Virus genome (UHGV): UHGV-0188933
Reading direction: 5' to 3' (one strand)
DNA: 18,246 nt
From: a virus
The first letter of the stretch is position 1, and each line of letters begins with the position of its first letter. The translations under genes and the position numbers were made by a program. Under the pieces are notes generated by a model, which was not told where the DNA came from, searched no databases, and worked only from the letters and a program-made list of their open reading frames with translations. Below, piece by piece: positions 1-17,684 of the stretch.

Positions 1-166
1 TGCATTTATCAAGTGTTTCCTTCATTGATATCCCGAGAGCATCAACATGCAATGTTGTAGGGATGGCAATTTTTACGCCCGTTTTGCTTTGCTCGACATA
101 AAGATATCCATCTACGATATCAGACCACTTCATTTCGCATAAATCACCGACTCGTTGCCCGGTACA
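1..166 (-). pseudogene. int: lambda-type tyrosine integrase, internal fragment (N-terminal part missing; C-terminal part continues left of the window)
   Basis: Complement translation of 2-166 reads TGQRVGDLCEMKWSDIVDGYLYVEQSKTGVKIAIPTTLHVDALGISMKETLDKC, which I recognise as the central region of lambda Int-family integrases. The frame runs off the left edge. Int-like sequence stops near 166, where the + strand O-like frame begins. Confidence 0.7.
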
Positions 167-2040: not shown

Positions 2041-2763
2041 ATGAATGAGTTAATAAATGGCAATGCCATCAAAATGACAAGCATTGAAATCGCTGAGTTG
2101 GTTGGTAAGCGTCATGACAATGTGAAACGTACCATCGAAACGCTGGCTAAAAATGGTGTTATCCGGCTTCCTCAAATTGAGGTTTCCGAAAGAATCAATA
2201 ACTTAGGGTTCAATGTTCAGTACGAGCATTACGTCTTCGAAGGCGAACAAGGTAAGCGAGACAGTATTGTCGTTGTTGCCCAGTTGTCGCCGGAATTCAC
2301 CGCTCGCCTTGTTGACCGCTGGCGAGAGCTTGAAGAAGCTGCGGTTAATATCCCCAAAACGCTACCAGAAGCGTTGCGCCTTGCTGCTGATCTTGCTGAG
2401 CAGAAAATGCAACTGGAAAACCAGCTCGCAATTGCCGCACCTAAAGTTGAGTTTGCCGATCGCGTTGGCGAGGCCAGCGGAATTTTGATTGGAAACTTTG
2501 CAAAGGTTGTCGGTATTGGTCCAAACAAACTGTTTGCGTGGATGCGCGATCACAAAATCCTTATTGCTTCAGGTTCCCGGCGCAATGTGCCAATGCAGGA
2601 ATATATGGATCGCGGCTATTTCACAGTGAAAGAAACAGCGGTCAATACAAATCACGGAATACAGATATCGTTCACCACAAAAATCACCGGGCGCGGTCAA
2701 CAGTGGCTGACCAGAAAGTTGCTCGATAACGGAATGCTGAAAGTAACAGGAGAGGCTGCTTAA
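2041..2763 (+). CDS. phage antirepressor (Rha-type N-terminal domain plus KilAC-type C-terminal domain)
   Basis: 240-aa ORF; N-terminus resembles Rha-family regulatory proteins and the C-terminal half resembles antirepressor KilAC domains. Start overlaps the upstream stop (ATGA). Confidence 0.6.
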   Translation: MNELINGNAIKMTSIEIAELVGKRHDNVKRTIETLAKNGVIRLPQIEVSERINNLGFNVQYEHYVFEGEQGKRDSIVVVAQLSPEFTARLVDRWRELEEAAVNIPKTLPEALRLAADLAEQKMQLENQLAIAAPKVEFADRVGEASGILIGNFAKVVGIGPNKLFAWMRDHKILIASGSRRNVPMQEYMDRGYFTVKETAVNTNHGIQISFTTKITGRGQQWLTRKLLDNGMLKVTGEAA

Positions 2764-3053
2764 TGGCTAACCTACGCAAAGAAGCGCGCGGCAGAGAATG
2801 CCAGGTACGTATTTACGGCGTATGCAATGGCAACCCTGAAACTACAGTTCTGGCACATTACCGGATGGCTGGAATTTGCGGAACGGGAATGAAGCCTGAC
2901 GACCTGATCGGCGCATGGGCTTGTAGCGCGTGTCACGATGAAATCGACCGACGCACCCATAATCTCGACAACAAAGACGCCAGGCTTTACCACCTCGAAG
3001 GCGTGATCAGGACGCAGGCGATACTGCTGAAGGAGGGGAAGATTAAGTCATGA
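2763..3053 (+). CDS. ybcO: DUF1364 nin-region protein, YbcO-like (putative nuclease)
   Basis: MANLRKEARGRECQVRIYGVCNGNPETTVLAHYR...CSACHDEIDRRTH matches my recollection of E. coli DLP12 YbcO nearly residue for residue, including the Cys/His pattern. Confidence 0.75.
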   Translation: MANLRKEARGRECQVRIYGVCNGNPETTVLAHYRMAGICGTGMKPDDLIGAWACSACHDEIDRRTHNLDNKDARLYHLEGVIRTQAILLKEGKIKS

Positions 3054-3412
3054 ACGAATATCAGTTTGTGCTTCCATACCCGCCGTCGGTGAATACCTAC
3101 TGGCGAAGACGGGGAAGCCAATACTACATCAGCGATAAAGGCCAGAAATACCGAAAAGACGTTCAGCAAATCATCCGCCAACTTAAGTTAGACATTTTCA
3201 CCAAATCACGACTCCGCATCAAAGTCATCGCAGACGTTCCAGACTCCCGCCGCCGCGACCTCGACAACATCCTGAAAGGTTTACTCGACTCCCTTATCCA
3301 CGCCGGATTTGCGGAAGACGACGAGCAATTCGATGACATTCGCGTAATTCGTGGCGTGAAAGTACCAGGCGGACGGCTTGGAATAAAAATCACCGAACTG
3401 GAGAACGTATGA
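3050..3412 (+). CDS. rusA: Holliday junction resolvase RusA
   Basis: 120 aa; LPYPPSVNTYW...DSRRRDLDNILKGLLDSL...GGRLGIKITELE follows the RusA pattern (PWPPSNN, RRRDLDN, GGRLELTITE). ATGA overlap with upstream gene. Confidence 0.85.
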   Translation: MNEYQFVLPYPPSVNTYWRRRGSQYYISDKGQKYRKDVQQIIRQLKLDIFTKSRLRIKVIADVPDSRRRDLDNILKGLLDSLIHAGFAEDDEQFDDIRVIRGVKVPGGRLGIKITELENV

Positions 3413-3603: not shown

Positions 3604-4082
3604 GAGAACTAAACCTCACCAAAGAGCAGCACGAGTGGCTGAATGGCTGGCTTGAACTGTGGGGGGCATGGGTTTATTCAGGTCGTCTTGAAAAGCGCAT
3701 GAGCAGCGTAATAGCGAAGTTCATGGAGAGCGTAGAGCCGGGAAGAGTTATGACAAGGCCAATGTGCAATGATGATGATGGAATGTTGATTTCTCAGGTC
3801 GTCGATTCCGTCATGTACATTGACAAGAAAGCCTTTGGCATCCTCCTCAGCTACTACGCCCATGGATCTTCCAAGCACGCCATTGCATCTTACTATCATC
3901 GCGTCGCAAGACCTCGCAAGATGTTATGCCGGGGCGGAGGGCGCATTCAAAAACCATCGCTCGCAACCTGTCGTCGGGAAGTTGACGAAATCCTCAATGC
4001 CTCGTTGTTTATGATTTACCCGGTTCTGGATAGTGCGTTTAAAAACCGGAAACGTGTAGAGAAAATTAAACATGTAGCATAG
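3594..4082 (+). CDS. late-gene antiterminator, Q-like
   Basis: 162-aa Cys-containing protein in the Q position (after ninH, before the lysis cassette). Call rests on synteny and size more than on recognised motifs. Confidence 0.55.
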   Translation: MGIRELNLTKEQHEWLNGWLELWGAWVYSGRLEKRMSSVIAKFMESVEPGRVMTRPMCNDDDGMLISQVVDSVMYIDKKAFGILLSYYAHGSSKHAIASYYHRVARPRKMLCRGGGRIQKPSLATCRREVDEILNASLFMIYPVLDSAFKNRKRVEKIKHVA

Positions 4083-4126
4083 AACGTGTTGACATCATTG
4101 AGCAAATGAGCAACACTATTCGCATA

Positions 4127-4168
4127 AGCTGCCGTTAGTGACTCTTAAGTTGCAACGGTGGCTTTTTT
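4127..4168 (+). terminator. hairpin plus T-run downstream of Q (possible short late-leader terminator)
   Basis: 10-bp stem (agctgccgtt / aacggtggct, two G-U pairs) with 17-nt loop, followed by TTTTTTATTT. A TTGACA hexamer lies at 4089-4094. Confidence 0.4.
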
Positions 4169-4172
4169 ATTT

Positions 4173-4247
4173 GGGTCAGTCGTATAAAGGTCATTACGGA
4201 AGGCTGTTAACCTTCTTATCGTGGTTCGAGTCCACGCTATCCCGCCA
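4173..4247 (+). tRNA. tRNA-Asn-like element (anticodon GUU), possibly degenerate
   Basis: Perfect T-arm cgtgg-TTCGAGT-ccacg, perfect anticodon arm gaagg-CTGTTAA-ccttc (U33, anticodon GTT, A37), U8, A14, GG in D-loop, 3' CCA at 4245-4247. Acceptor stem has two mismatches (gggtcag vs ctatccc) and D-stem one. Confidence 0.45.
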
Positions 4248-4283
4248 AACATGCTGGTTTAGCTCCAATGGTAGAGGTGGTAA

Positions 4284-4709
4284 ATGCCGAGCAAAGATTA
4301 CTATCTTAATCGAAGGGCTAGGCTTGCTAAGACCGTGGAAAAGTTGGGTGGTCGTTGCGCGAGTTGCGGATCCGAATATTCGCTTCAGTTTGACCACATA
4401 GACCCTTCCACCAAATCAGCAAATGTAAGCGAGATGCACTATCACTCAGATTAGGTGTTTTATGCTGAGGTTGAAAAGTGCCAACTACTATGTTCTGCAT
4501 GCCACATTCAGAAAACCAAATTTGACCTTAGCTACTTAGTAGCTGGTGAGCTGAATGGTATGAGCAAGCTAACAATGGACAGCGTCCAGTTCATCAGAGA
4601 AAACTACATTCCACGACATAAGGTTTATGGAGCCAGAGGGCTAGGGAGAATGTTTGGTGTAACACATCAAACAGTGCTTTCAGCCTTAAATGGCGAAAGC
4701 TGGAAATAA
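4284..4709 (+). pseudogene. HNH endonuclease interrupted by in-frame TAG at 4452-4454
   Basis: Frame from ATG 4284 reads ...CASCGSEYSLQFDHIDPSTKSANVSEMHYHSD*VFYAEVEKCQLLCSACHIQKT...; the C-x2-C, DH, N and C-x2-CH elements of one HNH motif are split by the stop. Good SD (gaggtgg) upstream. Confidence 0.7.
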
Positions 4710-5126
4710 GCTGCGCGTCAGAGGTTCGATTCCTTTGCCCGCTCCAGTAAAAGCTTTCCAGTCTGCGATGATGGGTTCCCCGGAGTGACTGGAAAGCGAC
4801 CTGGTTTTGAATGGGCGCTGCTTTTTGCAAAATTGCTGTGTGAAAATACTGACCTTTGGGTTCAGCGCTCATCCAAAAGCATCACGTGAATTCACCAACG
4901 CTCATGTACTCTCCAGGAAACAATAAGTGATTCTGAAAAGTTCCGGTTAGATATTGCCCCGGTCACCGGATGATTTTATCTTTTGGTTCGTGGTGAATCC
5001 CCCTATGCGGCGGGGCGTCCAGTCAAACTTTTTTGTCCAGGTTTGTTTGCGCGGAACTAGTCGGCTGGGGCTGTTCCACCGGGAGGCACCCGGCGCCACC
5101 TCCTTGACGGTATTGTTATTTTTCAT

Positions 5127-5153
5127 GCCTGTTCGTCCGAGCAGGCTTTTTTT
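5127..5153 (+). terminator. intrinsic terminator about 410 bp upstream of holin (tR'-like)
   Basis: 8-bp stem (gcctgttc / gagcaggc with one G-U), 4-nt loop, then TTTTTTT. Confidence 0.6.
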
Positions 5154-5563
5154 GCCCGCATTATCTTCATTGAAAACTGGCAACTCAGAGAATCATCCAA
5201 ATTAAAAAAGCAGCAACGAGAGCGATTACTAATACATTCTTCGCTTTTTCTCTTCTGCTGGCCTTCACAAAAGGATTCACTATCCGGCAGTGGCTACACA
5301 CAAGTGATTCTGGGTTAATTAACTTTCCGCAGTAGGGGCAGGGCTTGATAATCATTGGTACTAATTAAGTTGTGAGAACGTAGTCTCATTTAACCACATT
5401 TATCGAGTTGTTTTACTAATGGTCTAGTTATTTCAGACATATTCATCAATTTCAGGCTCACGGGAATCATCCGCTACGTGCTTTGTTGATAAATCCAGCC
5501 CGTGAAGCCTGACCCTTTTCAAACACACACACAGCACCATCCGGAAAATCGGAGGTGAGGCCT

Positions 5564-5887
5564 ATGAAAATGCCATACAAACAAGATTTCATCGCTGCGC
5601 TACTTGCCGCCAAGGAGCAGGGTATTGGTGCAATGCTGGCTTTTATCATGGCGTATCTGCGTGGTCGCTATAACGGCGGCGCGGTAACAAAAACGCTAAT
5701 TGATGCGCTGATGTGCGCGATGATTGCCTGGTTCGTTCGTGACCTTCTGGACTTTATCGGCCTGAGCAGCAACCTCGCCTACATAGCCAGCGTCTTTATT
5801 GGATACATCGGCACCGATTCGATCGGCAATCTTATTAAAAAACTTGCAGCAAAAAAGGCGGGAGTTGACGATGCAAACCAGTCCTGA
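5564..5887 (+). CDS. S: class I holin, lambda S family, with dual-start motif
   Basis: [64 protein letters not shown]... is close to lambda S ([39 protein letters not shown]...). ATG-AAA-ATG with SD ggagg upstream. An in-frame GTG at 5555 gives the longer ORF in the track. Confidence 0.9.
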
Positions 5888-6320
5888 CGGAATTGCTCTG
5901 ATAAAAAAATTTGAAGGTTGTCGGCTGACTGCTTACCCCGACCCCGGAACGGGAGATGCGCCGTGGACCATCGGCTATGGCTGGACCCATCCGGTTGACG
6001 GAAAGCCAGTAAAGCGCGGTATGACTATCGACCAGCAAACCGCTGACAGGCTTCTGAAAACAGGGCTTGTTGGTTATGAGAATGACGTGCTGAAAGTTGT
6101 CAGGGTGAAGCTGACACAAGGCCAGTTCGACGCACTGGTGTCGTTCGCTTACAACGTTGGGTCGCGTGCTCTTTCCACATCTACACTGCTGAAAAAGCTG
6201 AATGCTGGCGATATAAAAGGCGCGGCAGATGAATTTCTGCGCTGGAATAAATCAGGCGGAAAGGTGATGCCGGGGCTCACGAATCGCCGCAAGGCAGAGC
6301 GAGCTCTGTTCCTGTCATGA
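5871..6320 (+). CDS. endolysin, T4-lysozyme-like (GH24) muramidase
   Basis: Protein from ATG 5871: [40 protein letters not shown]... with E-x8-D-x5-T catalytic spacing; ends [11 protein letters not shown] like P22 gp19-type lysozymes. Start overlaps holin end. Confidence 0.85.
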
Positions 6321-6784
6321 TTAGCGCACTGGTTAAGCGTTACTGGCTGCAGTTGCTGGTGCTGGCGTTAATCGGCGCACTGGCTTTCTTCGTGAACCAC
6401 TACCGCGACAACGCCATCACTTACAGAGACCAGCGCGATAAGGCCACTGAGAAACTCCTCCTGGCGACCGCCACCATTAAAGACATGCAGACCCGCCAGC
6501 GTGATGTCGCTGCACTGGATGCCAAATACACCGGAGAACTGGCTGATGCGAAAGAAACCATTGAGCGTCTGCATAGCGATGTCATTGCTGGCCGTAAGCG
6601 CCTGCAAGTCGCCGCCACCTGTGCAAAGTCAACGACCGGAGCCAGCAGCATGGGCGATGGAGAAAGCCCAAGACTTACAGCAGATGCTGAACTCAATTAT
6701 TACCGTCTACGAAGTGGAATCGACAAGATAACCGCGCAGGTTAACTACCTGCAGGAATACATCAGGACGCAATGCCTGAAATAA
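6317..6784 (+). CDS. Rz: i-spanin Rz
   Basis: 155 aa with N-terminal TM segment ([16 protein letters not shown]) and coiled-coil-like remainder, immediately after the endolysin (ATGA overlap). Confidence 0.8.
6546..6731 (+). CDS. Rz1: o-spanin Rz1 (lipoprotein) embedded in the +1 frame of Rz
   Basis: [33 protein letters not shown]...: signal peptide with lipobox VSAC and proline-rich mature part, wholly inside Rz. Confidence 0.75.
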
Positions 6785-6816
6785 TTTTTTTGCAAATCAC
6801 AAAGTCCATTTAATGA

Positions 6817-6838
6817 GCCTCGCGATGCGGGGCTTTTT
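6817..6838 (+). terminator. intrinsic terminator after lysis cassette (first of two)
   Basis: gcctcgc-gat-gcggggc, 7-bp stem, followed by TTTTT. Confidence 0.65.
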
Positions 6839-6845
6839 GCAATAA

Positions 6846-6870
6846 ATGCGTACCGCAACGCATGTTTTTT
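6846..6870 (+). terminator. intrinsic terminator after lysis cassette (second of two)
   Basis: atgcgt-accgca-acgcat, perfect 6-bp stem, then g + TTTTTT. Confidence 0.65.
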
Positions 6871-6985
6871 ACACCGAACCTGCCCCTTTGGAATGGGCCT
6901 TTGAGGATACCAGTTAGTGCTGGCGAGCCTCGGTGGGCTGGTTTCCTGTGCGGCAAAGGTTCATTTCAAAGAGTAGGTACACGCT

Positions 6986-7483
6986 ATGAAATCATTAACC
7001 CTCTTCAATCAACCAATTCGTATCGGTGAAGATGGCATGATCTGCCTCACTGATATGTGGAAAGCTAGTGGTAAAAGTGAATCTGAATCGCCTTACCACT
7101 ACCTGCGAAACAAGCAGACCAAAGAGTTCTTAGCCGAGCTGGAGAAAAACCACGAATCTGTGGTTTTTACTGAGCGCGGTGTACACGGTGGAACATATGG
7201 CGGGAAGTTTGTTGCTTACGATTATGCGGCTTGGTTAAACCCCGGGTTCAAGTACGCGGCCTATAAAGTCCTCGATGACTACTTCACCGGAGAACTTCAG
7301 CATCGCAACAGCTTAAGTGCGCAGCTCAACATGAAATGTCATGAGTTTGACCAGAAGAAAGACATGGCGAGCTTCTGCGGACAAGGGCTGGCAGCATGGC
7401 GCTATACGAAGCCAGTGTTGGTCGCTGAGATTAACTCCCTGGCTAACCAGCTGCAGATTACGATCCCCGGGCTTCCGGGATGA
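6986..7483 (+). CDS. KilA-N domain protein
   Basis: MICLTDMWKASGKSE...KEFLAELEKN...GVHGGTYGGKFVAYDYAAWLNPGFKYAAY matches the KilA-N pattern (TDxWKA, GGT, YAxWLxPxF). Confidence 0.7.
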   Translation: MKSLTLFNQPIRIGEDGMICLTDMWKASGKSESESPYHYLRNKQTKEFLAELEKNHESVVFTERGVHGGTYGGKFVAYDYAAWLNPGFKYAAYKVLDDYFTGELQHRNSLSAQLNMKCHEFDQKKDMASFCGQGLAAWRYTKPVLVAEINSLANQLQITIPGLPG

Positions 7484-7737
7484 GTGATCGTGTCATTGAA
7501 TGCGCCTCCAGAGCGGGGCGCGACTTCTCAGAGTTCATGAAAGGCGAGAAGGGCATGAGGGAAGCATTGGCCTCGGTGGATGAGTTTGGCGAGCAGCTGC
7601 GCCTCAACGGCTGTGTCAATCATCACTTTGTTAGCTACATGATGCGGAACTCGATCATGCAGGCATTCATGGACATGGCAAAAGCCGAGAGGAAAGAAGA
7701 GCGCCGGCGTAAGCGAGCGGAAGCAAAAGCGAAGTAG
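7480..7737 (+). CDS. hypothetical protein with basic Lys/Arg/Glu-rich C-terminal tail
   Basis: 85-aa ORF, ATGA-coupled to the KilA-N gene; no recognised domain. Confidence 0.4.
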   Translation: MSDRVIECASRAGRDFSEFMKGEKGMREALASVDEFGEQLRLNGCVNHHFVSYMMRNSIMQAFMDMAKAERKEERRRKRAEAKAK

Positions 7738-8089
7738 CCATTACAAAGCCCATCTACGGGTGGGCTTGATAATGAAACCGTGATTTACATCCCCACAATC
7801 CGGGTATGTAAAAGATAGTTCAGGCGAGAACAGATTTAACTAAATCTGTGCACCACCAGTTACGGCAGTACCACGAAGCAACCCAAGCCAGTAAGTGGGG
7901 AAATAACACTGGCAGCCACTGAAAGATGAACCTCCAGCCTTATGGCAAAAAAGATTCTTTGTGGTGGCGGGCTGATGGAAAGACATCGGTTATTGCAGAG
8001 GCCATTCAATGAGTGGTCTCGACAATGGCTTATACCCTGCACGGGATAACTTAACTGATATCCCTTTTAACGGATAAACGGAGCCAACA

Positions 8090-8245
8090 ATGGCAAAGCT
8101 CACCGACAAACAAGAGCTGTTTGCCCGTGAGTACCTGAAAGATTTAAACGCCACACAGGCAGCTATCAGGGCGGGTTGGGCAAAAGCTCAACAACATGCC
8201 GTATTACCGCGCGAAACAATACGCGCAGATGCTTGGCATCGATGA
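8090..8245 (+). pseudogene. terminase small subunit, N-terminal stub (51 codons)
   Basis: MAKLTDKQELFAREYLKDLNATQAAIRAGW... is the conserved N-terminal helix-turn-helix of Terminase_2-type small subunits; frame ends at 8243-8245 after diverging. SD ggag 8 nt upstream. Confidence 0.7.
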
Positions 8246-9833
8246 AAACACGCTGATGGCGATGCGGCGCGGCATGAATGGCTTTACCGCCGATTACCAG
8301 TCGATGCTGCAAAAGACAGGGTTCAACGCTGATAAAGCGGCTGTTCAGTCCAACAAATTCATGACGTCCATGCGCGGGCTTACGTCGCTGTTCGGCATCA
8401 TGCGGGACAAGATCGGCTCAAACCTCGCTGGTGGCCTGGCTGGTTCGCTGGACAGCCTGCGGCGGCGCATCCTCGACAATTTCCCGAAGATTGAAGAGAC
8501 GCTGACCAGAGTTATTAAAGGCGTGATCTGGCTTGCGAACGCATTCACGAGAATGGCGTGGCGGCTGATACAGGGCGCTGGCTCTGTCATCGACTGGTGG
8601 AAGCGTCTTGACGATGGCAGTAAAAATCTGCTGAAAATATTCGGTGCTCTACTGGTCGCATGGCGTCTGCTTAATTCTGCGTTCCTGAAATCCCCGATTG
8701 GAATTATCACCACACTGATTCTGGCGATCGGATTGCTGTACGACGATTACCAGACGTGGAAAGAGGGCGGTAAAAGCCTGATTGACTGGTCCAAATGGCA
8801 GCCAGAAATTGAGCAGGCAAAGAAGGTGTTCAAGTGGCTGCGCGATAAGTTTCTGGAGCTCAAGGACAACCTCGGCGGCTGGAAAAATACGCTCACCATC
8901 CTGTTTGGCTTTCTGGCTGGTGCGAAGCTGGTCTCCATGCTCACTGGCATCGGGCGACTTGTCGCCGGATTTATGGGGCTTGGTAAGGCAATTGGCGGCT
9001 CTATTGGTGGGCTGGGTAAGCTGGCGCAGGGGATCGCACAGCTGGCAATCAAGAATCCATGGTTGCTTATGTTCATTCCTGCCAACAATACGCCGACCAC
9101 CAGTGAAGAAATGGCGTCGATTGGCGGTATAGGCAGCAATATCGTACCTGAAAGGCAGCAGGCATATGAGGCGCTGAGAAAGGAAAATCCCGGCAAAGAC
9201 TTTTTCACTGATGAGCAAATCCAGCGAAAAATTCAGGAGATGGGACTGGAGCCGGAGCAGCGAGCGCAGTCGGTTAAGCGACCTCAGGCGACGGCCCAGG
9301 GCAAGGTATTGCTCGACTGGATGGGGCCAATGTTCAATAAACTGGAGTCGCTTTATCAGCTGCCAGCTGGCCTGTTGAAAAGCGTGGCGATCACCGAGTC
9401 GGGTGGTAACCAGTTCGCCATATCCGGCGCAGGCGCGAAAGGACTGTTTCAGTTTATGGATGGCACGGCGCGCGACATGGGCCTGCGTGGGAATGATGTA
9501 TTCGACCCGGAAAAGTCAGCTCAGGCAGCCGCTAAGTACCTCAGCCAGCTGTTGCGGCAGAACGGCGGAGACCTTAGCAAAGCACTGGCATCATATAACT
9601 GGGGGATCGGGAATGTTAAGCGTTATGGAATGGGGCTAATGCCGCAGGAAACGCGCAACTACATTCCGAAAGTGATGAGCAATATGCCCACCAGCGCCCC
9701 GGTGATTCAGCAGGAAACGAACATTAACATCCACGGCGTTTCCGATCCGCGCGAGGCTGCCCGTTTGACTGTTGACCGTCAAAAGGGCGTGAATTCACAG
9801 TTAACCCAGCAACTCCCCGCAGGACCGAGATAA
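8196..9833 (+). CDS. tail tape measure protein, C-terminal portion, with lytic transglycosylase (SLT) domain; N-terminal part absent
   Basis: Typical TMP low-complexity Gly/Ala/Leu segments (LAGGLAGSLDSL, GKAIGGSIGGLGKLAQGIAQ). C-terminal ITESGGNQFAISGAGAKGLFQFMDGTARDMGL...ASYNWG is an SLT signature. Frame opens only at 8148, just inside the terS stub. Confidence 0.75.
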   Translation: MPYYRAKQYAQMLGIDENTLMAMRRGMNGFTADYQSMLQKTGFNADKAAVQSNKFMTSMRGLTSLFGIMRDKIGSNLAGGLAGSLDSLRRRILDNFPKIEETLTRVIKGVIWLANAFTRMAWRLIQGAGSVIDWWKRLDDGSKNLLKIFGALLVAWRLLNSAFLKSPIGIITTLILAIGLLYDDYQTWKEGGKSLIDWSKWQPEIEQAKKVFKWLRDKFLELKDNLGGWKNTLTILFGFLAGAKLVSMLTGIGRLVAGFMGLGKAIGGSIGGLGKLAQGIAQLAIKNPWLLMFIPANNTPTTSEEMASIGGIGSNIVPERQQAYEALRKENPGKDFFTDEQIQRKIQEMGLEPEQRAQSVKRPQATAQGKVLLDWMGPMFNKLESLYQLPAGLLKSVAITESGGNQFAISGAGAKGLFQFMDGTARDMGLRGNDVFDPEKSAQAAAKYLSQLLRQNGGDLSKALASYNWGIGNVKRYGMGLMPQETRNYIPKVMSNMPTSAPVIQQETNINIHGVSDPREAARLTVDRQKGVNSQLTQQLPAGPR

Positions 9834-10435
9834 TGGATATTTTATCAGCGATTTTTCGCCAGCAATCCCGGCGAATTGGCCTGCTGATCCCCAGCGTGGT
9901 CGTTTCCGAAAAGCATTCTGATGCGCTCGAAATTACTGAGCACCCGGTGGAGAAGCCAACAACGAATAGCGCGTCGGGTTTCATCGCCGATCATGCGTAT
10001 AAGCGCCCCAGCGAAGTCACGATGGAATGCGGCTTCGCAGGTGGCGGTTCGTTGCTGGACTTCATTGATACATCGTCAATCGGCCTCAGCGCCGGACTTA
10101 GCCCGAAAGAGACCTATCAGCAACTACTGGATCTCCAGTCCTCTCGGGTGCCGTTCGATGTAGTGACCGGAAAGCGGGTTTACAGCAATATGCTGGTGCG
10201 AGCCATCGAGGTGACAACGGATAAAACCAGCGAGAACGTGCTGAACTGCACGCTTACCCTGCGTGAAGTGATCATGTCGCAGACGCAGAGCGTTAGCGTT
10301 GCAGATAAATCAGATATGCAGGATGGCGTCAGCACATCGGCGGTGCAGAATTCCGGGATGAAATCCACTACACCGCCAAACGAATCCTTGCTGAGCCAGC
10401 TGGGCGGAAGCGTTACATCAGCATTCGGGGGATGA
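9833..10435 (+). CDS. tail/baseplate assembly protein (family uncertain)
   Basis: 200-aa ORF translationally coupled to the TMP stop; position between TMP and hub. Confidence 0.4.
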   Translation: MDILSAIFRQQSRRIGLLIPSVVVSEKHSDALEITEHPVEKPTTNSASGFIADHAYKRPSEVTMECGFAGGGSLLDFIDTSSIGLSAGLSPKETYQQLLDLQSSRVPFDVVTGKRVYSNMLVRAIEVTTDKTSENVLNCTLTLREVIMSQTQSVSVADKSDMQDGVSTSAVQNSGMKSTTPPNESLLSQLGGSVTSAFGG

Positions 10436-10436
10436 T

Positions 10437-10742
10437 ATGCAGTTTAACGAAATACCGCTTTCTCCTGACAATCAGCAGTTCCGCGTTTTGCTGGGCAATA
10501 CCACGTATACACTCAGGATCATCTGACGTGATGCGGCTGGCTGGATTATGGACGTGATGGATAGCGGCGGTGCCGCGCTTCTCTCTGGCGTACCTCTACT
10601 GACCGGCGTAAACCTTTTACGACAATATCCACAGCTTGGCATTGATGGCGCGCTGGTGGTGGCGACCGATAAGGGCGCACCAGACGAGCCCACCAAAACC
10701 AACCTCGGCACATACAGCCACCTCATTTTCGTACAGGAGTAG
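10437..10742 (+). pseudogene. small tail protein interrupted by in-frame TGA at 10524-10526
   Basis: Single frame reads MQFNEIPLSPDNQQFRVLLGNTTYTLRII*RDAAGWIMDVMDSGGAALLSGVPLLTGVNLL...VQE, verified codon by codon; the TGA would be Trp with one G-to-A change. Confidence 0.5.
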
Positions 10743-10744
10743 AA

Positions 10745-11812
10745 ATGTCTCTTAACTGGATGCGCCATTTTGAGCTGCAACTGTTGGACCAGAACGGGCA
10801 GGGCGTTTCCCTGTCTGACTTTAAGGTCACGTTCCAGATCGAGTGGGCAGACACACGCTGGCCACGCGTGGCGAACGTGAAAATTTACAACCTTTCGACC
10901 GATACCACGAACAAGATACTGGGGCAGGAGTTTGCAAAAATTCGCATCATTGCCGGGTATGACGGTATTGCGCCGGATGTTGATGCGAGCCAGGTTGGTG
11001 TCGCCCGGGAGATTTCACCAGACCAGGTAGGGCAGGTGAACGGTCAGAACTACGGCCTGATATTTGACGGTGATATTCGCTTCACCGTCACCGGGAAGGA
11101 CAACATCACCGATTCCTGGGTGCTGATTCAGGCCATCAGTAACCACGAAGCGTTCCTCTACGCGACTACCATCACCACGCTTGCCGCTGGTTATACCGTT
11201 GCGGACCTGCACCGGGCGACTATGCAGGATTTCAACGCGTTCGGCGTGACGCAGGGCATTACCGGTGACTTTCCTGATACCGTGTTTCCTCGTGGCCGTG
11301 CGATTTATTCATCCACCCGTAACGTGATGGATAATATTGCTGCGCAGTGCAAAGCGACATGGCAGCTGGTGGATGGTCAGGTCCAGATGGTGCCGGAGGA
11401 TAAATATATTCACGAAGCCATTGTGTTGAATGCCGATACTGGCCTGATCGGTATGCCGCAACAAACGATGGGCGGCGGAGTAAACGTGCGGTGCCTGATA
11501 AACCCAAACATCCGTATTAATGGTCTTATCCAGCTCGATCAGGCTTCGGTGTACCGCGCCGCGCTCGGTAATAGCGAAATAGCACAGTCGCCCGGTCGCA
11601 TCACCGAAACAGAAGAGAACGGCAACCGCGTACTGACCGGCACAACGTCACAGGCTGCCAGCATTGCGACAGATGGCGTTTATATCGTCAAAGCTATCGA
11701 TTATACTGGTGACACCAGAGGTCAGGCGTGGTACATGGATTTGATGTGTTTTGCGCGTGGGGCTCGTGACCTGATTAGCCAGTCGACTATAGCTCGCTCA
11801 GGAGGAAATTAA
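10745..11812 (+). CDS. baseplate hub-like tail protein (Mu gp44 / P2 gpD position)
   Basis: 355-aa ORF immediately upstream of the spike/gp46/gpJ/gp48 module; assignment by synteny and size. Confidence 0.4.
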   Translation: MSLNWMRHFELQLLDQNGQGVSLSDFKVTFQIEWADTRWPRVANVKIYNLSTDTTNKILGQEFAKIRIIAGYDGIAPDVDASQVGVAREISPDQVGQVNGQNYGLIFDGDIRFTVTGKDNITDSWVLIQAISNHEAFLYATTITTLAAGYTVADLHRATMQDFNAFGVTQGITGDFPDTVFPRGRAIYSSTRNVMDNIAAQCKATWQLVDGQVQMVPEDKYIHEAIVLNADTGLIGMPQQTMGGGVNVRCLINPNIRINGLIQLDQASVYRAALGNSEIAQSPGRITETEENGNRVLTGTTSQAASIATDGVYIVKAIDYTGDTRGQAWYMDLMCFARGARDLISQSTIARSGGN

Positions 11813-12703
11813 GTGGGTACAAATAAGAACGGAATTCGATATAGCGCACTTTTTCTTTCCGGGTTGCTCTTATCCGGGGGCGCGAGTGCAGGCTTTAATT
11901 CCGCGCAGAACGCTGAGTACAAAAGACGTCCAGGATGGCAGCCGATAGTAATTTTATCGACAGATGATTGTCAGACATGGAAATCTAAAGGGAAGTCACT
12001 AATTGACTGGAGTGGCGAGATCTGTGGTCCTGACGGGTTGATTAAGGCAATCAATAAAAAGCCGGAGAATATACCAGCTTTTTATGCTGCATATCATGAG
12101 TACGGCACAGGTGGAGTTAGGGCTATCGATGTAAGAGATAATTCTCAGCTAAATTATCTCAATTTTGTAAATGATTTAGCTAAGAAACTTTCTTCTTCGG
12201 CTGTTGTATTAAAGATTTATGATGATTATATCATTGATAGAAAACCCATGGGGCTTGCAGAGGTTTCACGAGAAAATTTTGTAAAACAGCTAAATGAGTT
12301 ATCGCTGAAGCAACCTGCCATCTATCAAAAAATGAACGACGTAGCCAAGGCTGATTACGAGAAAAGTAGTAATGTTCACAGTAACGAAAAGCTTGGCGTG
12401 AATTACAAAACAGTCTGTGGTCCTTATACGATTGATCTGTCTTCTGCTGATGGTTGGGCCAGAATTAATGGCGCAAAACCAGAGACGCAAAAAATTAGCC
12501 CAATCGGCTCTGGTGGTAGCACCAAAGGGGAACCGGATAACATCAAGATGGAGTGGATGGCTGCCACTAATCAACCCGGCCGCTGGGTTGGGCTTGAGTA
12601 CATCAAGCGCAACGGAAAAGCTATTCTCAACGCACAGTGGTTGCAGGCCAGCATAGACGCGCCGCGCCAGTATGCAACATACGACTGCCGAAAAGTAAAA
12701 TAG
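11813..12703 (+). CDS. cargo (moron) protein, 296 aa: signal-peptide-like N-terminus and a TMP-like motif; function unknown
   Basis: GTG start 7 nt after GGAGG. N-terminus MGTNKNGIRYSALFLSGLLLSGGASAG looks like a signal peptide. Residues DDCQTWKSKGKSLIDWS parallel DDYQTWKEGGKSLIDWS in the TMP. Remainder is visibly AT-rich relative to flanking tail genes. Confidence 0.55.
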   Translation: MGTNKNGIRYSALFLSGLLLSGGASAGFNSAQNAEYKRRPGWQPIVILSTDDCQTWKSKGKSLIDWSGEICGPDGLIKAINKKPENIPAFYAAYHEYGTGGVRAIDVRDNSQLNYLNFVNDLAKKLSSSAVVLKIYDDYIIDRKPMGLAEVSRENFVKQLNELSLKQPAIYQKMNDVAKADYEKSSNVHSNEKLGVNYKTVCGPYTIDLSSADGWARINGAKPETQKISPIGSGGSTKGEPDNIKMEWMAATNQPGRWVGLEYIKRNGKAILNAQWLQASIDAPRQYATYDCRKVK

Positions 12704-12726: not shown

Positions 12727-13017
12727 TCAAAAATATTGAGCTTTAATTATAATAAACACAATAATTACGAACAGGATGTTTCTAATTATTTTTTGCTTAT
12801 GAGTAAGTTGTTTTTTTTCTGTCGATTTCCCGGGAGAGTAAAGGTTAGTGGTATGCGACAGCCCCGTGCCGGGAAGGCCATTTGTCATCTTTACGCCTTT
12901 TTTCCCGATGTTAATGGTGGAACCTTTACCACCAATTGAAGTGCTTACTCCGCTTTTACTAATGTTGATCGCGAGTCCGGGCGCAATCCGGATTCTTTTA
13001 CGAAATCTAAATCCCAT
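12727..13017 (-). CDS. DUF4236-like small protein with C-terminal transmembrane helix
   Basis: MGFRFRKRIRIAPGLAINISKSGVSTSIGGKGSTINIGKKG...PGTGLS resembles what I recall of the DUF4236 N-terminal signature; C-terminus IIRNILFVIIVFIIIKAQYF is hydrophobic. AT-rich, convergent with the cargo gene. Confidence 0.55.
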   Translation of the reverse strand: MGFRFRKRIRIAPGLAINISKSGVSTSIGGKGSTINIGKKGVKMTNGLPGTGLSHTTNLYSPGKSTEKKQLTHKQKIIRNILFVIIVFIIIKAQYF

Positions 13018-13239: not shown

Positions 13240-13980
13240 ATGCCAATTCCAACTCAATCACAGATCGGCGGTGAGCAGCAGACCGCGCAGGCCATTGCCG
13301 ATTCGGTGTCTACCCAGATGCGCGTAGCGATGCCCGGCATCATTCAGTCGTTCGATCCTGACACTGTTACCTGCACGGTAGAGGTAGCGCTTCGCGGTAT
13401 CGTTGGCGATGGCTCCACCGAATTAAAACCGCTGGTGGATGTGCCGGTTATCTTCCCGCGTGGCGGCGGTTGTACGCTGACTTTTCCGGTTAAAGAAGGC
13501 GACGAGTGCCTGCTGCTCTTTGCCGACCGTTGCATCGATTTCTGGTGGCAGAGCGGCGGCGTGCAGGAGACCGTCGACCCGCGCCAGCATGACTTATCTG
13601 ATGCGTTCGCCATCGTTGGCCCACAGTCGCAAGCACGGAAAATCAGCGGTATCAGTACCAGCGCCGCGCAGCTGCGAACCGATGATGGTGCGGCGTTTGT
13701 AGAAGTCGCCGCAGGACATAACATCACCATTAAAACACCGGGCCAGCTTACAGCTACGGCTGAAGGTGGAACGACAATCACATCCCCGACTATCACGCTG
13801 AACGGCAACGTAACGATTAATGGCAACTTGTCTCAGGGAATGGGCGAAAGCGGCGGTACTGCGACGATGCTTGGGCCGGTGACGGTAACGAATGACGTAA
13901 CAGCTTCTGGTATCAGTGTCGCCACGCATAAACATGGCGGAGTACAGACTGGCGGGGGAACTACCGGAGGGCCGCAATAA
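13240..13980 (+). CDS. baseplate spike / assembly protein V (Mu gp45, P2 gpV-like)
   Basis: N-terminal OB-fold-like region (GIIQSFDPDTVTCTVEV...PLVDVPVIFPRGGG...GDECLLLFADR) and Gly/Thr-rich beta-helical C-terminus (TITSPTITLNGNVTINGNL...). Confidence 0.8.
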   Translation: MPIPTQSQIGGEQQTAQAIADSVSTQMRVAMPGIIQSFDPDTVTCTVEVALRGIVGDGSTELKPLVDVPVIFPRGGGCTLTFPVKEGDECLLLFADRCIDFWWQSGGVQETVDPRQHDLSDAFAIVGPQSQARKISGISTSAAQLRTDDGAAFVEVAAGHNITIKTPGQLTATAEGGTTITSPTITLNGNVTINGNLSQGMGESGGTATMLGPVTVTNDVTASGISVATHKHGGVQTGGGTTGGPQ

Positions 13981-14333
13981 TGCGATACCGTCGCGAAGAT
14001 ACTGAAGGCGATTACACTTTCGGCCAGGGTGACGATACTTTCCTTATCGACAGTCCGGAATGTGTCGCCCAGGCCGTAAAAACCCGTTTCGAGCTGTGGC
14101 GCGGTCAGTGGTTTCTCGATCTGACGGAAGGCACGCCGTATGTTCAGTCAGTGCTTGGGAAGCAGCGATCAGATGTCTACATCCTGGCTATACGCGAACG
14201 CATACAGGATACACCGGGCGTTCTGTCGATTCTTTCCTTCGATACCAATTATGACGGCACCAGCCGTCGCGTCACCTTCACTTCCTCCATTGACACAATC
14301 TACGGCCAGACGACTGTAACAAGCGAGGCATAA
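13980..14333 (+). CDS. baseplate protein, Mu gp46 / gpW-like
   Basis: 117 aa, ATGA-coupled between spike and gpJ-like gene. Confidence 0.65.
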   Translation: MRYRREDTEGDYTFGQGDDTFLIDSPECVAQAVKTRFELWRGQWFLDLTEGTPYVQSVLGKQRSDVYILAIRERIQDTPGVLSILSFDTNYDGTSRRVTFTSSIDTIYGQTTVTSEA

Positions 14334-15533
14334 ATGGCTTTGAACCTCGACACGCTGGGGCTATCGGCAACGGTAACCGCCCAGGGGATTAGTGCGCCTG
14401 ATTACCAGACAATCCTAGATACACTGACCAGCTATTTCAGGCAGATTTACGGTAGTGATGCCTACCTCGAACCAGACAGCAAAGACGGGCAGATGGTCGC
14501 GCTGGTGGCTCTTGCCGTGCATGACGCTAACAACACCGCTATCGGGATCTACAACTCTTTTTCACCGACGACAGCGCAGGCCGCAGCGCTTAGCAGCAAT
14601 GTGAAAATTAACGGGATCACGCGAAAAGTAGCGACAAACTCTACTGCTGACCTTCTGTTAACCGGTACGGCAGGCACGACTATCACGAATGGCTCCGCAC
14701 GGGATAAAAACGGCATTATCTGGAATTTTCCCGCAAGTGTAGCGATCGGCGTTGATGGTACTGTGCTGGTGACGGCCACATGTGCGAATAGCGGTTCGGT
14801 TGCGGCGCTGGCCGGGACTATTACCACTATCAACACCCCGACCCGAGGTTGGGTGTCGGTAACCAATCCAGTTGCGGCTACTGTCGGTTCACCAGCCGAA
14901 ACCGACGCAGAGCTGCGCATTCGGCAGGGGCAAAGCGTCGCGCTACCATCGATCACACCGTTTGAAGGTGTCGACGGTGCTATCGCTAATGTTGCTGGCG
15001 TGACACGTCACAAACTATATAAGAACGATACTGGGGCAACCGACAGCAACGGGCTGCCGCCACACTCTATTTCCGCCATCGTCGATGGAGGGGATGTTAC
15101 CGAGATAGCCCAGACCATCAGGGGGAATAAAGGGCAGGGAACCGCAACTTACGGTAAAACTTCTGTCACAGTGCCGGATACTTATGGTAATCCTCACGTC
15201 ATCAGTTTTTCGCGCTCTACCGATGTGCCAATTTTCGTAGCCATTACCCTGAAAGTTTTTACCGGCTATACCTCTCAAATCGGCGAGCAGATTAAACAGG
15301 CTGTTGCCGATTATATAAATGGCCTAACAATTGGCGACGACGTTCTGCTGAGCCGTATTTATTCCCCGGCAAACCTCGGCGTTGTGAGCGGCGGGAATGC
15401 CCGCTATTACGATATTACCGACCTGCTGATCGGTAAGTCGTCTGGCAGCGTATCGGCATCAAACATTGATATTGCCTATGATGCTTCAGCGTCCTGTAGC
15501 ACCGCGAATATCAGTATCACGGTGACCTCATGA
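14334..15533 (+). CDS. baseplate J-like protein (Mu gp47 / P2 gpJ family)
   Basis: 399 aa; size and position between gp46-like and gp48-like genes. Confidence 0.7.
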   Translation: MALNLDTLGLSATVTAQGISAPDYQTILDTLTSYFRQIYGSDAYLEPDSKDGQMVALVALAVHDANNTAIGIYNSFSPTTAQAAALSSNVKINGITRKVATNSTADLLLTGTAGTTITNGSARDKNGIIWNFPASVAIGVDGTVLVTATCANSGSVAALAGTITTINTPTRGWVSVTNPVAATVGSPAETDAELRIRQGQSVALPSITPFEGVDGAIANVAGVTRHKLYKNDTGATDSNGLPPHSISAIVDGGDVTEIAQTIRGNKGQGTATYGKTSVTVPDTYGNPHVISFSRSTDVPIFVAITLKVFTGYTSQIGEQIKQAVADYINGLTIGDDVLLSRIYSPANLGVVSGGNARYYDITDLLIGKSSGSVSASNIDIAYDASASCSTANISITVTS

Positions 15534-16210
15534 GCAAATACACCGAACTGATCACTAACTACCACGCTACCAAGCCACTCTTTTTTGACCATATAGATCT
15601 GAGCACCTGCCCGCTGATTGATGTGTCCAGCACTATGTCAGGGCTTATAACAGCCTTCGATATCGATACTGCTGTCGGTGTACAGCTCGACATCCTCGGT
15701 CTGTGGATCGGACGCAGTCGCATAGTCAGCCAGCCAATTAGCGGAGTTTATTTCAGCTTGGACACTGACGGGCTTGGGTATGACCAGGGCATCTGGCAAG
15801 GGCCATATGATCCTGATTCTGGCTATACGACGCTAAGCGATGAGACGTACCGCATCATTCTGAAAGCGAAAATCGCTATCAACAACTGGGACGGTCGGAA
15901 CGACTCTCTGCCTCCCATCCTTGACGCTGCTACCGCAGGCTCAGGCCTGAGGATGCAGATCGTCGACAACCAGGACATGACGATTTCGGTCTGGGTTTTC
16001 CCTGAAACTGATATTTCTGATGTGTCTCTCGAACTGATCGCCGCTATCAAACAGGGCTATCTCACCGTTAAATCAGCTGGCGTATGGGCCGGTGATGTTG
16101 AAACGCCTTCGGTAGAAACACCGTCAGAAGGCTCTAAATTCTTTGGGTTTGATATGGATAACGAATACATCGGCGGGTTCGATGTTGGAGCATGGGGGAC
16201 AATACTCTAA
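15530..16210 (+). CDS. tail protein, Mu gp48 / YmfQ (DUF2313) family
   Basis: 226 aa, coupled upstream of the tail fibre gene, as in Mu-like and e14-like baseplate modules. Confidence 0.65.
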   Translation: MSKYTELITNYHATKPLFFDHIDLSTCPLIDVSSTMSGLITAFDIDTAVGVQLDILGLWIGRSRIVSQPISGVYFSLDTDGLGYDQGIWQGPYDPDSGYTTLSDETYRIILKAKIAINNWDGRNDSLPPILDAATAGSGLRMQIVDNQDMTISVWVFPETDISDVSLELIAAIKQGYLTVKSAGVWAGDVETPSVETPSEGSKFFGFDMDNEYIGGFDVGAWGTIL

Positions 16211-17076
16211 TGGCAATAAACAACTTTAAACCTTTCGCGCTTGATCCGAACGCTAACGTCACCTCACAAGCTGACTGGGAAGCACTTCCGGCTCTGCTTT
16301 CAGGGTTTACGGCAGGTAAAGCATCCAGCGCACAGGTCAACAAAGCTATTCGGCAAGCCAGCTTTATCGCGGCAGCGTTGGCGCAGTACACCGCCAACAA
16401 AAGCGGGCTGGATGTGCTTGATGATGGAGACCTGAACGGGTTTATATCCAAAATGGGGACCGCTTTCGGGAAAGATTTCCAGGCGCTTGATGCCACGCTG
16501 TCGGCATTAGCTGGGCTCGCAACAGGTGCAAATAAACTCCCATATTTCACTGGAAATGATACAGCAGCGCAGACTGATTTAACTTCTGTTGGCCGTGACA
16601 TTATTGGGAAAAATACTATTGCTGATATTCTCACATACCTTGGTTTGGGAGAAGGCTCAGCATTACCTGTTGGGGTGCCTGTTCCGTGGCCTTCAGCCAC
16701 TCCGCCAACAGGCTGGTTGAAATGCAATGGTGCGGCTTTTTCTGCTGAAGAATATCCGGAACTAGCAAAGGCTTATCCGACAAATAAATTGCCTGATTTA
16801 CGTGGTGAGTTTATTCGTGGCTGGGATGACGGGCGCGGTGTGGATAATGGCCGCGGTTTACTGTCTACTCAGAACGATGAGTTTAAATCCCACAGCCATA
16901 ACTTTGATCGCACATGGGGGTTAAGCGCCTTTGATCCTACTGGGGGCTATGACCTTGTTTCAGCAGATGCAAGCGGGAAAGTAGTAAATTTCGATACTCG
17001 ACCAACCGTCGAAGTGGGCGGCTCAGAAACCCGTCCGCGCAACATTGCATTCAACTACATTGTAAGGGCGGTATAA
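16210..17076 (+). CDS. short tail fibre protein with C-terminal phage tail collar domain
   Basis: C-terminal PVPWPSATPPTGWLKCNGAAFSAEEYPELAKAY...LPDLRGEFIRGWDDGRGVDNGRGLLSTQNDEFKSHSH is a tail-collar pattern. ATG 16210 overlaps the upstream TAA (track ORF begins at in-frame ATG 16192). Confidence 0.8.
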   Translation: MAINNFKPFALDPNANVTSQADWEALPALLSGFTAGKASSAQVNKAIRQASFIAAALAQYTANKSGLDVLDDGDLNGFISKMGTAFGKDFQALDATLSALAGLATGANKLPYFTGNDTAAQTDLTSVGRDIIGKNTIADILTYLGLGEGSALPVGVPVPWPSATPPTGWLKCNGAAFSAEEYPELAKAYPTNKLPDLRGEFIRGWDDGRGVDNGRGLLSTQNDEFKSHSHNFDRTWGLSAFDPTGGYDLVSADASGKVVNFDTRPTVEVGGSETRPRNIAFNYIVRAV

Positions 17077-17684
17077 TGACCACAAAAGAAATCAACCTGG
17101 ATGAAAACGGGTTCGCCACGGAATCTGGGGTTATCACTGTTTATAATTACGATGGCGTGACGCGTGAATATATCGGTTTATCTGTTGAATATCTTCCCGT
17201 TGGCGTTGGTGTTCCAGGCAATTCGTGCGTGGATGCGCCAATCAGCAAAAAGGACGGCTTTGCTGTTTGCCGGACGGCTGATTTGACCGGTTGGGAATAT
17301 GTTGCAGACCATCGCGGCGAAACCGTTTACAGCACGGAAACTGGAGAACCTGTGGCAGTTTCACAGTTGGGAGAATACCCGGAAGGAACCACCACCAAAG
17401 CACCTGATACGCCATACGACAAATGGGATGGCCAAAAATGGGTGACGGATGCCGATGCACAGCATAGTGCCGCACTAGACGCGGCAGAAGTAAAGCGCCA
17501 GTCACTGATTGATGCAGCAATGGCTTCCATTAGTCTGATTCAGCTGAAATTACGGGCCGGACGGAATCTGACGCAGGCAGAAACCGCCCGACTTAACGCT
17601 GCGCTGGATTACATTGACGCGGTGACGGCAACAGATACCAGCACCGCGCCGGATGTCATCTGGCCTGAACTGCCGGAGGCGTAG
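17076..17684 (+). CDS. tail fibre assembly chaperone (Tfa)
   Basis: 202 aa ending ...TATDTSTAPDVIWPELPEA, a typical Tfa C-terminus, directly downstream of the fibre gene. Confidence 0.8.
   Translation: MTTKEINLDENGFATESGVITVYNYDGVTREYIGLSVEYLPVGVGVPGNSCVDAPISKKDGFAVCRTADLTGWEYVADHRGETVYSTETGEPVAVSQLGEYPEGTTTKAPDTPYDKWDGQKWVTDADAQHSAALDAAEVKRQSLIDAAMASISLIQLKLRAGRNLTQAETARLNAALDYIDAVTATDTSTAPDVIWPELPEA

Follow-up and report, generated by a model that had tools for sequence, protein, structure and literature searches.

The window, which is the whole stretch of 18,246 nt of viral DNA that was analysed (UHGV-0188933), carries at 8090-8245 a short open reading frame (ORF) that overlaps the beginning of a much longer one. 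Both ORFs, 8090..8245 (51 aa) and 8196..9833 (545 aa), are present as an earlier note on this DNA had described them. The following features are found at the locus:

8090-8245, + strand: junction-spanning ORF of 51 codons, composed of 29 terS codons and 22 codons of tape measure protein (TMP) DNA out of frame, with the stop codon TGA at 8243-8245
8090-8177, + strand: true remnant of the small terminase gene terS (Terminase_2 family), start codon and first 29 codons, 96.7% nucleotide identity to the KilA-N to terS region of E. coli ET650, the match ending at 8177
8175-8177, no strand: deletion breakpoint with a 3-bp microhomology, GTT, common to the terS and TMP parents, placed by base-level alignment
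8175-9833, + strand: TMP remnant, residues 142-693 of 693, with the C-terminal SLT lytic transglycosylase domain, recognised by tblastn, PHROG 2276 and Pfam SLT

The 51-aa product matches the Pfam family Terminase_2 (PF03592) at profile positions 1-31 of 141 only (E 3.8e-11) and also matches PHROG 51 'terminase small subunit'. The terS proteins of intact relatives cover profile positions 1-139. Judged by this incomplete domain, the short ORF is a fragment of a terS gene and not a short member of the Terminase_2 family. It had been described as a conserved terS N-terminus of 51 codons, and the terS start is indeed genuine according to PF03592, but this applies only to the first 29 codons, since codons 30-51 are TMP DNA read in the wrong frame.

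The TMP frame is open from 8148, with preceding stops at 8136-8138 and 8145-8147, and the matches to PHROG 2276 and the SLT domain agree with the earlier proposal that a different frame, encoding the C-terminal part of a TMP, opens at about this position. Residues 142-693 of the TMP of prophage S1 correspond to window 8175-9830 without gaps (99.1% aa identity in tblastn). The first in-frame ATG of the remnant, at 8196, is a native internal Met codon of the TMP and gives rise to the 545-aa ORF. The match of its product to PHROG 2276 'tail length tape measure protein' covers profile positions 195-658 of 673, and because it starts only at position 195 the product is N-terminally truncated. The 693-aa TMP of S1 matches profile positions 19-658 and its gene follows the chaperone/DUF6889 genes. 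A full-length PHROG 2276 protein directly after a chaperone pair is thus not what the window contains, although the SLT domain is intact. Among the listed members of the TMP 90% cluster the full-length proteins have 693 aa and every shorter entry is incomplete, and no relative was found there in which a short terS is followed by a protein of this kind.

When window 7000-10000 was compared by megablast with 5,426 complete E. coli genomes, there were many matches to each half and none that spanned the break at about 8175-8177. In blastn the window follows terS of ET650 up to 8177 (96.7%) and the TMP of S1 from 8175 onwards (97.2%, gap-free for 3.6 kb). The breakpoint was resolved against two terS-intact relatives on the left and five TMP-intact relatives on the right. 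The terS parents (ET650, Z1323CEC0001) have CAGGGCGGGTT before the break and ACAGCG after it, the TMP parents (S1, PEC422, CUPF09, I3, FJ_Ec_21) have CTGGCGTT before it and GGGCAAAAG after it, and the window and all deleted copies have CAGGGCGGGTT joined to GGGCAAAAG. The sequence ATCAGGGCGGGTTGGGCAAAAGCTC can be used as a screen for carriers of the junction. PEC422 can be used for the TMP side only; it was dropped as a single comparator for both sides because it carries a different small terminase (DUF2280). The earlier note had placed the junction within 8150-8200 and suggested alignment to intact prophages in order to find endpoints and microhomology. That alignment places it at 8175-8177 and gives a single clean internal deletion with the 3-bp GTT at the join, where terS codon 29 is joined to TMP codon 142.

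The S1 prophage (L001) shows what lies between these two codons in an intact relative. Its gene order is terS (183 aa), TerL, DUF1073 portal, head morphogenesis, DUF2213, Gp24 cement, DUF2184 capsid, STY1053, DUF4054, two hypotheticals, neck terminator, DUF3383 sheath, DUF3277 tube, chaperone and DUF6889, after which come the 693-aa SLT tape measure gene and the baseplate, and the gene order in E. coli ET650 (L002) is identical. The distance between the breakpoints is 11,804 bp in S1 and 11,645 bp in ET650, that is, about 11.7 kb. The missing block amounts to 15 genes, TerL to tail chaperone/DUF6889, and the N-terminus of the TMP; it includes TerL, portal, head morphogenesis, DUF2213, Gp24 cement, DUF2184 capsid, connectors, neck terminator, DUF3383 sheath, DUF3277 tube and chaperones. 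None of the 15 S1 proteins from TerL to DUF6889 has a tblastn match in the window or in the contig outside it (L003 1-1911 and L007 beyond 20051), which bears out the earlier statement that large terminase, portal, capsid, connectors, sheath/tube and the TMP N-terminus are lost.

The deleted segment is intact in Citrobacter phage Omnitron (97.5% identity) and is also found in Escherichia phages vB_EcoM-689R2/611R5, Salmonella phage SEN34 and Hafnia phage yong1, and intact in E. coli prophages. Its presence in Omnitron and the other phages indicates that the ancestor was a normal temperate myophage of about 41-43 kb with lambdoid early genes. A literature search on the vB_EcoM-689R2 phage group returned no paper.

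The two sides of the breakpoint have different closest relatives. ET650 is 96.7% identical to the window on the terS side, yet its TMP is only 64.6% identical, and S1 is 97.2% identical on the TMP side, yet its terS start is only 78% identical. No single sequenced relative combines an ET650-type terS and an S1-type TMP at high identity, and the exact ancestor is therefore inferred from two mosaic relatives. The same figures could be expected if an ET650-type and an S1-type prophage had been resident in the same cell and had been joined by illegitimate recombination, so that the scar would not come from a deletion within one prophage. Lambdoid phages are mosaic, however, and differing best relatives for each module are to be expected in any case. 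Both comparators also have the same gene order and a nearly equal distance between the breakpoints, and the host genes on either side, ybhC and ybhB-bioA, natively flank a single att site, with no chromosomal rearrangement of the sort expected from a join between two prophages. With both native flanks in place, an intramolecular deletion is favoured over recombination between two distant prophages, and a join of the latter kind is most unlikely.

The position of the element in the host chromosome is seen in a 50-kb contig (ERZ28810828), where the gene order is the pectinesterase-family gene ybhC, a 67-aa integrase fragment, the prophage, ybhB and bioA. The chromosomal flanks are 99.4% (ybhC) and 99.9% (ybhB-bioA) identical to E. 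coli and are neighbours in the same way as in a chromosome without an insertion. The chromosomal match of ybhC and integrase stops at L003 2075, which is window 164. TOK-001 has the same ybhC-side junction, there with full integrase and excisionase. At the other end, window 18113-18246 matches the region just upstream of the HK629 attP core (94%), from which it follows that the window ends just short of attR, with ybhB next in the longer contig. Host genes are thus found on both sides of an element integrated at an attachment site, virion-essential genes are missing (the packaging/head/tail block, int, the repressor region and the O N-terminus), and collinear homology of high identity continues on both sides of a breakpoint where the middle segment is gone. 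These features of the sequence identify the window as a cryptic prophage of lambdoid, myovirus type, located at the lambda attachment site of E. coli (ybhC / ybhB-bioA). GenBank/NCBI nr lists the element as a third-party-annotated viral MAG, 'Caudoviricetes sp.' (DAE77790.1, DAE77787.1; 'MAG TPA'), in which both ORFs are entered and the 51-aa scar ORF, DAE77790.1, bears the name 'Terminase small subunit'.

The left half of the element has several further lesions:

1-164, - strand: 3' remnant of a lambda-type tyrosine integrase gene at the prophage left end beside ybhC, 96.3% identical to HK629 int (L009 2563-2726, CDS 2279-3349)
165-177, no strand: second, separate deletion junction, int' joined to 'O, with 13 bp matching neither side
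178-847, + strand: remnant of replication protein O without about the first 74 codons, 98.1% identical to the HK629 O/P region
822-1856, + strand: DnaB-like replicative helicase, C-terminally truncated (Pfam DnaB in full and DnaB_C profile positions 1-136 of 255)
4284-4709, + strand: HNH endonuclease pseudogene, S57 to stop (TCG to TAG at 4452-4454) in comparison with the 141-aa HNH of E. coli KL53

In blastn against HK629, window 1-164 corresponds to int and 178-1855 to O from nt 222 on. About 8.9 kb of HK629 is absent at the int'-'O join, including the int N-terminus, xis, recombination genes, kil, N, repressor, cro, cII and the O 5' end. A third discontinuity is seen where HK629 homology leaves P at window 1855 and resumes in ninF at 1906. 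The O remnant contains origin iterons at 342-437, six copies of the 11-bp TTGTCCAAC[G/A]G in two clusters; these are presumably the phage replication origin, kept though O and the helicase are truncated. Downstream of Q there is a single tRNA-Asn (GTT) at 4173-4247. In the S1 and ET650 prophages a tRNA-Thr comes next, which the window lacks, and its homology to S1 stops at 4276.

A chimeric join of short reads, absent from any real genome, could in principle produce the same junction, and the sequence does derive from metagenome assemblies. The junction was found in 0 of the 5,426 complete E. coli genomes, and an exact 25-mer junction scan gave no match in species-representative genomes or IMG/VR contigs. 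Because the 51-aa ORF spans the junction, an exact-sequence look-up of this ORF is a test of the junction itself. Such a look-up found the exact 51-aa sequence on at least 10 public contigs as well as in nr (DAE77790.1). A metagenome scan together with the look-up recovered the same junction in five independent samples, four of which are 100% identical to the window over the compared lengths (2-18.2 kb):

ERZ28810828 (L003/L007): 50-kb contig, 44x, 100% identical over 18.2 kb of the window
SRR30861120 (L004): 9.9-kb contig, 100% identical to the window
SRR31716339 (L005): 2.0-kb contig, 100% identical to the window
ERZ773108 (L016): 15.9-kb contig, 13x, 100% identical over 14.8 kb of the window
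ERZ773116 (L006): 886-bp contig, 1.8x, the same junction with 3 SNPs and a different sequence left of 8015

The exact junction was thus assembled independently in five samples and by at least two pipelines (ENA NODE contigs, Logan contigs), the two long contigs have 44x and 13x coverage, and the 3 bp in common at the breakpoint are far too short for a repeat-collapse join. The earlier note had asked for read coverage to be checked against misassembly; the coverage and the independent assemblies speak for a real junction, an artefact is effectively refuted and its probability is negligible. The element is nevertheless rare, with about 6-10 contigs carrying the junction. In the short contig from ERZ773116, L006 1-415 holds a different gene upstream of window 8015, and the SNPs are at 8017/8020/8023. 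Either the deletion is carried here by a recombinant, or the contig, with its low coverage, is chimeric.

To the right of the scar the window retains a tail-tip module that can be compared with S1 gene by gene:

9833-10435, + strand: Dit-like baseplate protein, intact, 99.5% aa identity to S1 over 200/200 residues (PF21821)
10437-10742, + strand: baseplate plug pseudogene (Pam3_gp18-like), W30 to stop (TGG to TGA at 10524-10526), the sole aa difference from the S1 orthologue
10745-11812, + strand: hub, gp41-like (Pfam), collinear with S1
11813-12703, + strand: 296-aa ORF without a Pfam match
12727-13017, - strand: DUF4236 (Pfam)
13240-13980, + strand: spike gpV (Pfam), collinear with S1
13980-14333, + strand: sheath initiator (Pfam), collinear with S1
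14334-15533, + strand: baseplate J (Pfam), collinear with S1
15530-16210, + strand: wedge (Pfam), collinear with S1
16192-17076, + strand: tail fibre with Collar domain (Pfam), collinear with S1
17076-17684, + strand: fibre assembly protein (Pfam), collinear with S1

The genes that the module, up to 17684, has in common with S1 are collinear and gap-free with 96-99% aa identity, and about 9 kb of tail-tip genes is without frameshift or stop, the plug gene excepted. The claim that the TMP remainder and the whole baseplate/fibre module stay open therefore holds for most of the module but not for the plug gene, where codon 30 is TGA. This codon can be read by tRNA-Trp at a low level (cf. PMC7918605), and the plug lesion may be leaky through such read-through of UGA as Trp. 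The 296-aa ORF lies in a stretch of low GC content (0.39), and its resemblance to the 114-aa protein that S1 has at this place is confined to the C-terminal ~95 aa. An 86%-identical version is found in 4 complete E. coli genomes, and the ORF may have entered the baseplate module by mosaic exchange.

Signals for expression of the TMP remnant are few. The 25 nt ahead of the ATG at 8196 contain no Shine-Dalgarno-like motif, and no sigma-70-like promoter is found on the + strand in 3900-8400. Translational coupling from the stub to the remnant was considered and rejected, as the stop of the stub (8243-8245) falls 50 nt downstream of the ATG and a Shine-Dalgarno motif is lacking. A programmed frameshift that would fuse the stub to the TMP was likewise rejected: the sole X XXY YYZ heptamer, TTTAAAC at 8143, belongs to the native terS sequence that precedes the junction, and slipping by -1 at this site would not lead into the TMP frame. 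The late operon of lambdoid phages depends on Q, which is expressed from the early rightward promoter. With that promoter region deleted, the tail-tip genes would be expected to be expressed only through read-through or when a superinfecting phage trans-activates them.

The open reading frames downstream of the scar might also be explained by domestication, in which selection on the host would maintain the truncated SLT protein together with the baseplate/fibre genes in a new role, for example as a cell-wall-active or adhesion complex or as a defence decoy. Most tail-tip ORFs are open, the substitutions in the window lineage are largely synonymous and the element is unchanged across several samples; incomplete prophages moreover show a statistical excess of tail-fibre genes, which have been suggested to be domesticated (PMC7744054). 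Against this, the plug gene, which belongs to the core of the baseplate, is interrupted by a premature stop, and with sheath and tube absent no contractile device can form. Furthermore, the TMP remnant has neither a ribosome-binding site nor a promoter of its own, the early promoter region driving Q is deleted, and the element is rare, being found on about 6-10 contigs and in none of the complete E. coli genomes. The substitutions specific to the window in the TMP remnant number 26 synonymous and 4 conservative non-synonymous, compared with 35:6 in an intact relative, and this resemblance suggests that most of the divergence predates the deletion. The carriers are 100% identical and there is hence no post-deletion divergence in which selection could be seen. 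On the sequence, a ratio of 26:4 would be predicted by a recent deletion and equally by continued selection. Domestication is very unlikely. A special form of it, in which selection would keep a sheath-less receptor-binding or cell-wall-active module that is expressed with Q from a superinfecting lambdoid phage and serves for decoy or interference, with the plug TGA read as Trp, is extremely improbable.

Between retained function and a recent deletion, the two possibilities that the earlier note had named for the open module, the recent deletion is favoured by the plug stop, the loss of the immunity/early-promoter region and the missing Shine-Dalgarno motif at the TMP ATG. The segment 8090-8245 is very probably the scar of one recent intramolecular microhomology deletion of about 11.6-11.8 kb in a multiply damaged, decaying E. 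coli prophage. The deletion would have joined small-terminase codon 29 to tape-measure codon 142 at the GTT of 8175-8177, most likely by RecA-independent illegitimate recombination such as replication slippage or microhomology-mediated end joining. The loss of all packaging, head, connector, sheath, tube and chaperone genes would leave the element unable to make particles. The 51-codon ORF would be a by-product and the 545-aa ORF the part of the TMP left 3' of the break. That the tail-tip genes are mostly open is probably explained by a deletion that is young relative to the mutation rate rather than by use of these genes. Decay has begun: the plug and HNH genes each contain a premature stop, and the immunity/early-promoter region that would drive Q is gone. 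Loss of terminase, portal and capsid with a tail fibre kept is a typical signature of incomplete prophages (PMC7744054), and recombination with superinfecting phages is known to rescue grounded prophages or to exchange DNA with them (PMC6379469). A passive residual role is plausible: the element could be a store of lysis, baseplate and fibre alleles on which incoming lambdoid phages draw by homologous recombination, and Q from a superinfecting phage might trans-activate its late operon.

Deletional decay is the textbook course for prophages. The feature is another instance of this very well known object and matters little for biology. Its value lies in a base-resolved deletion of about 11.7 kb at a 3-bp microhomology, caught early, when most downstream genes are still open. 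A non-viable remnant that is listed as a viral MAG also calls for caution with virome catalogues and completeness estimates, and lambdoid phages that enter the cell could obtain baseplate, fibre and lysis alleles from the remnant.

Two other kinds of element were considered. A PICI-like phage satellite, a compact island with a working integrase, a replication module and packaging-redirection genes of its own, was rejected because the integrase is a 3' fragment, O and helicase are truncated, terS is a 29-codon stub and the gene content is a subset of a full lambdoid phage. R-type tailocins resemble the window in having phage tail genes in the chromosome without head genes, beside a lysis cassette. 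They depend on sheath and tube, on a tape measure of full length and on a complete baseplate, whereas the window lacks sheath, tube, chaperones and the TMP N-terminus and has a stop in the plug gene; the tailocin reading was rejected because neither the DUF3383 sheath nor the DUF3277 tube has a tblastn match.

Omnitron (CP115737.1), vB_EcoM-689R2/611R5 and the S1 and ET650 prophages are 93.8-97% identical to the window at nucleotide level over the TMP-baseplate module, with the same order and the same terS/TMP families. These are elements of about 41-43 kb with the ~11.7-kb TerL-to-chaperone block, a terS of 183-184 aa and a TMP of 693 aa; unlike the Omnitron-type phages, the window is without this block and without the immunity/integration region.

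The cryptic lambdoid prophages DLP12, Rac, Qin and e14 of E. coli K-12 are also among the closest known systems, and like the window they are att-integrated with large internal deletions and point lesions. Cryptic lambdoid prophages have likewise lost packaging/head genes and kept lysis and some tail-fibre genes, make no particles and could recombine with superinfecting phages (review PMC6379469). The window differs from DLP12, Rac, Qin and e14 in its site, which is attλ (ybhC/ybhB), in its tail module, which is of myovirus type (DUF3383 sheath family) and not of siphovirus type, and in being rare.
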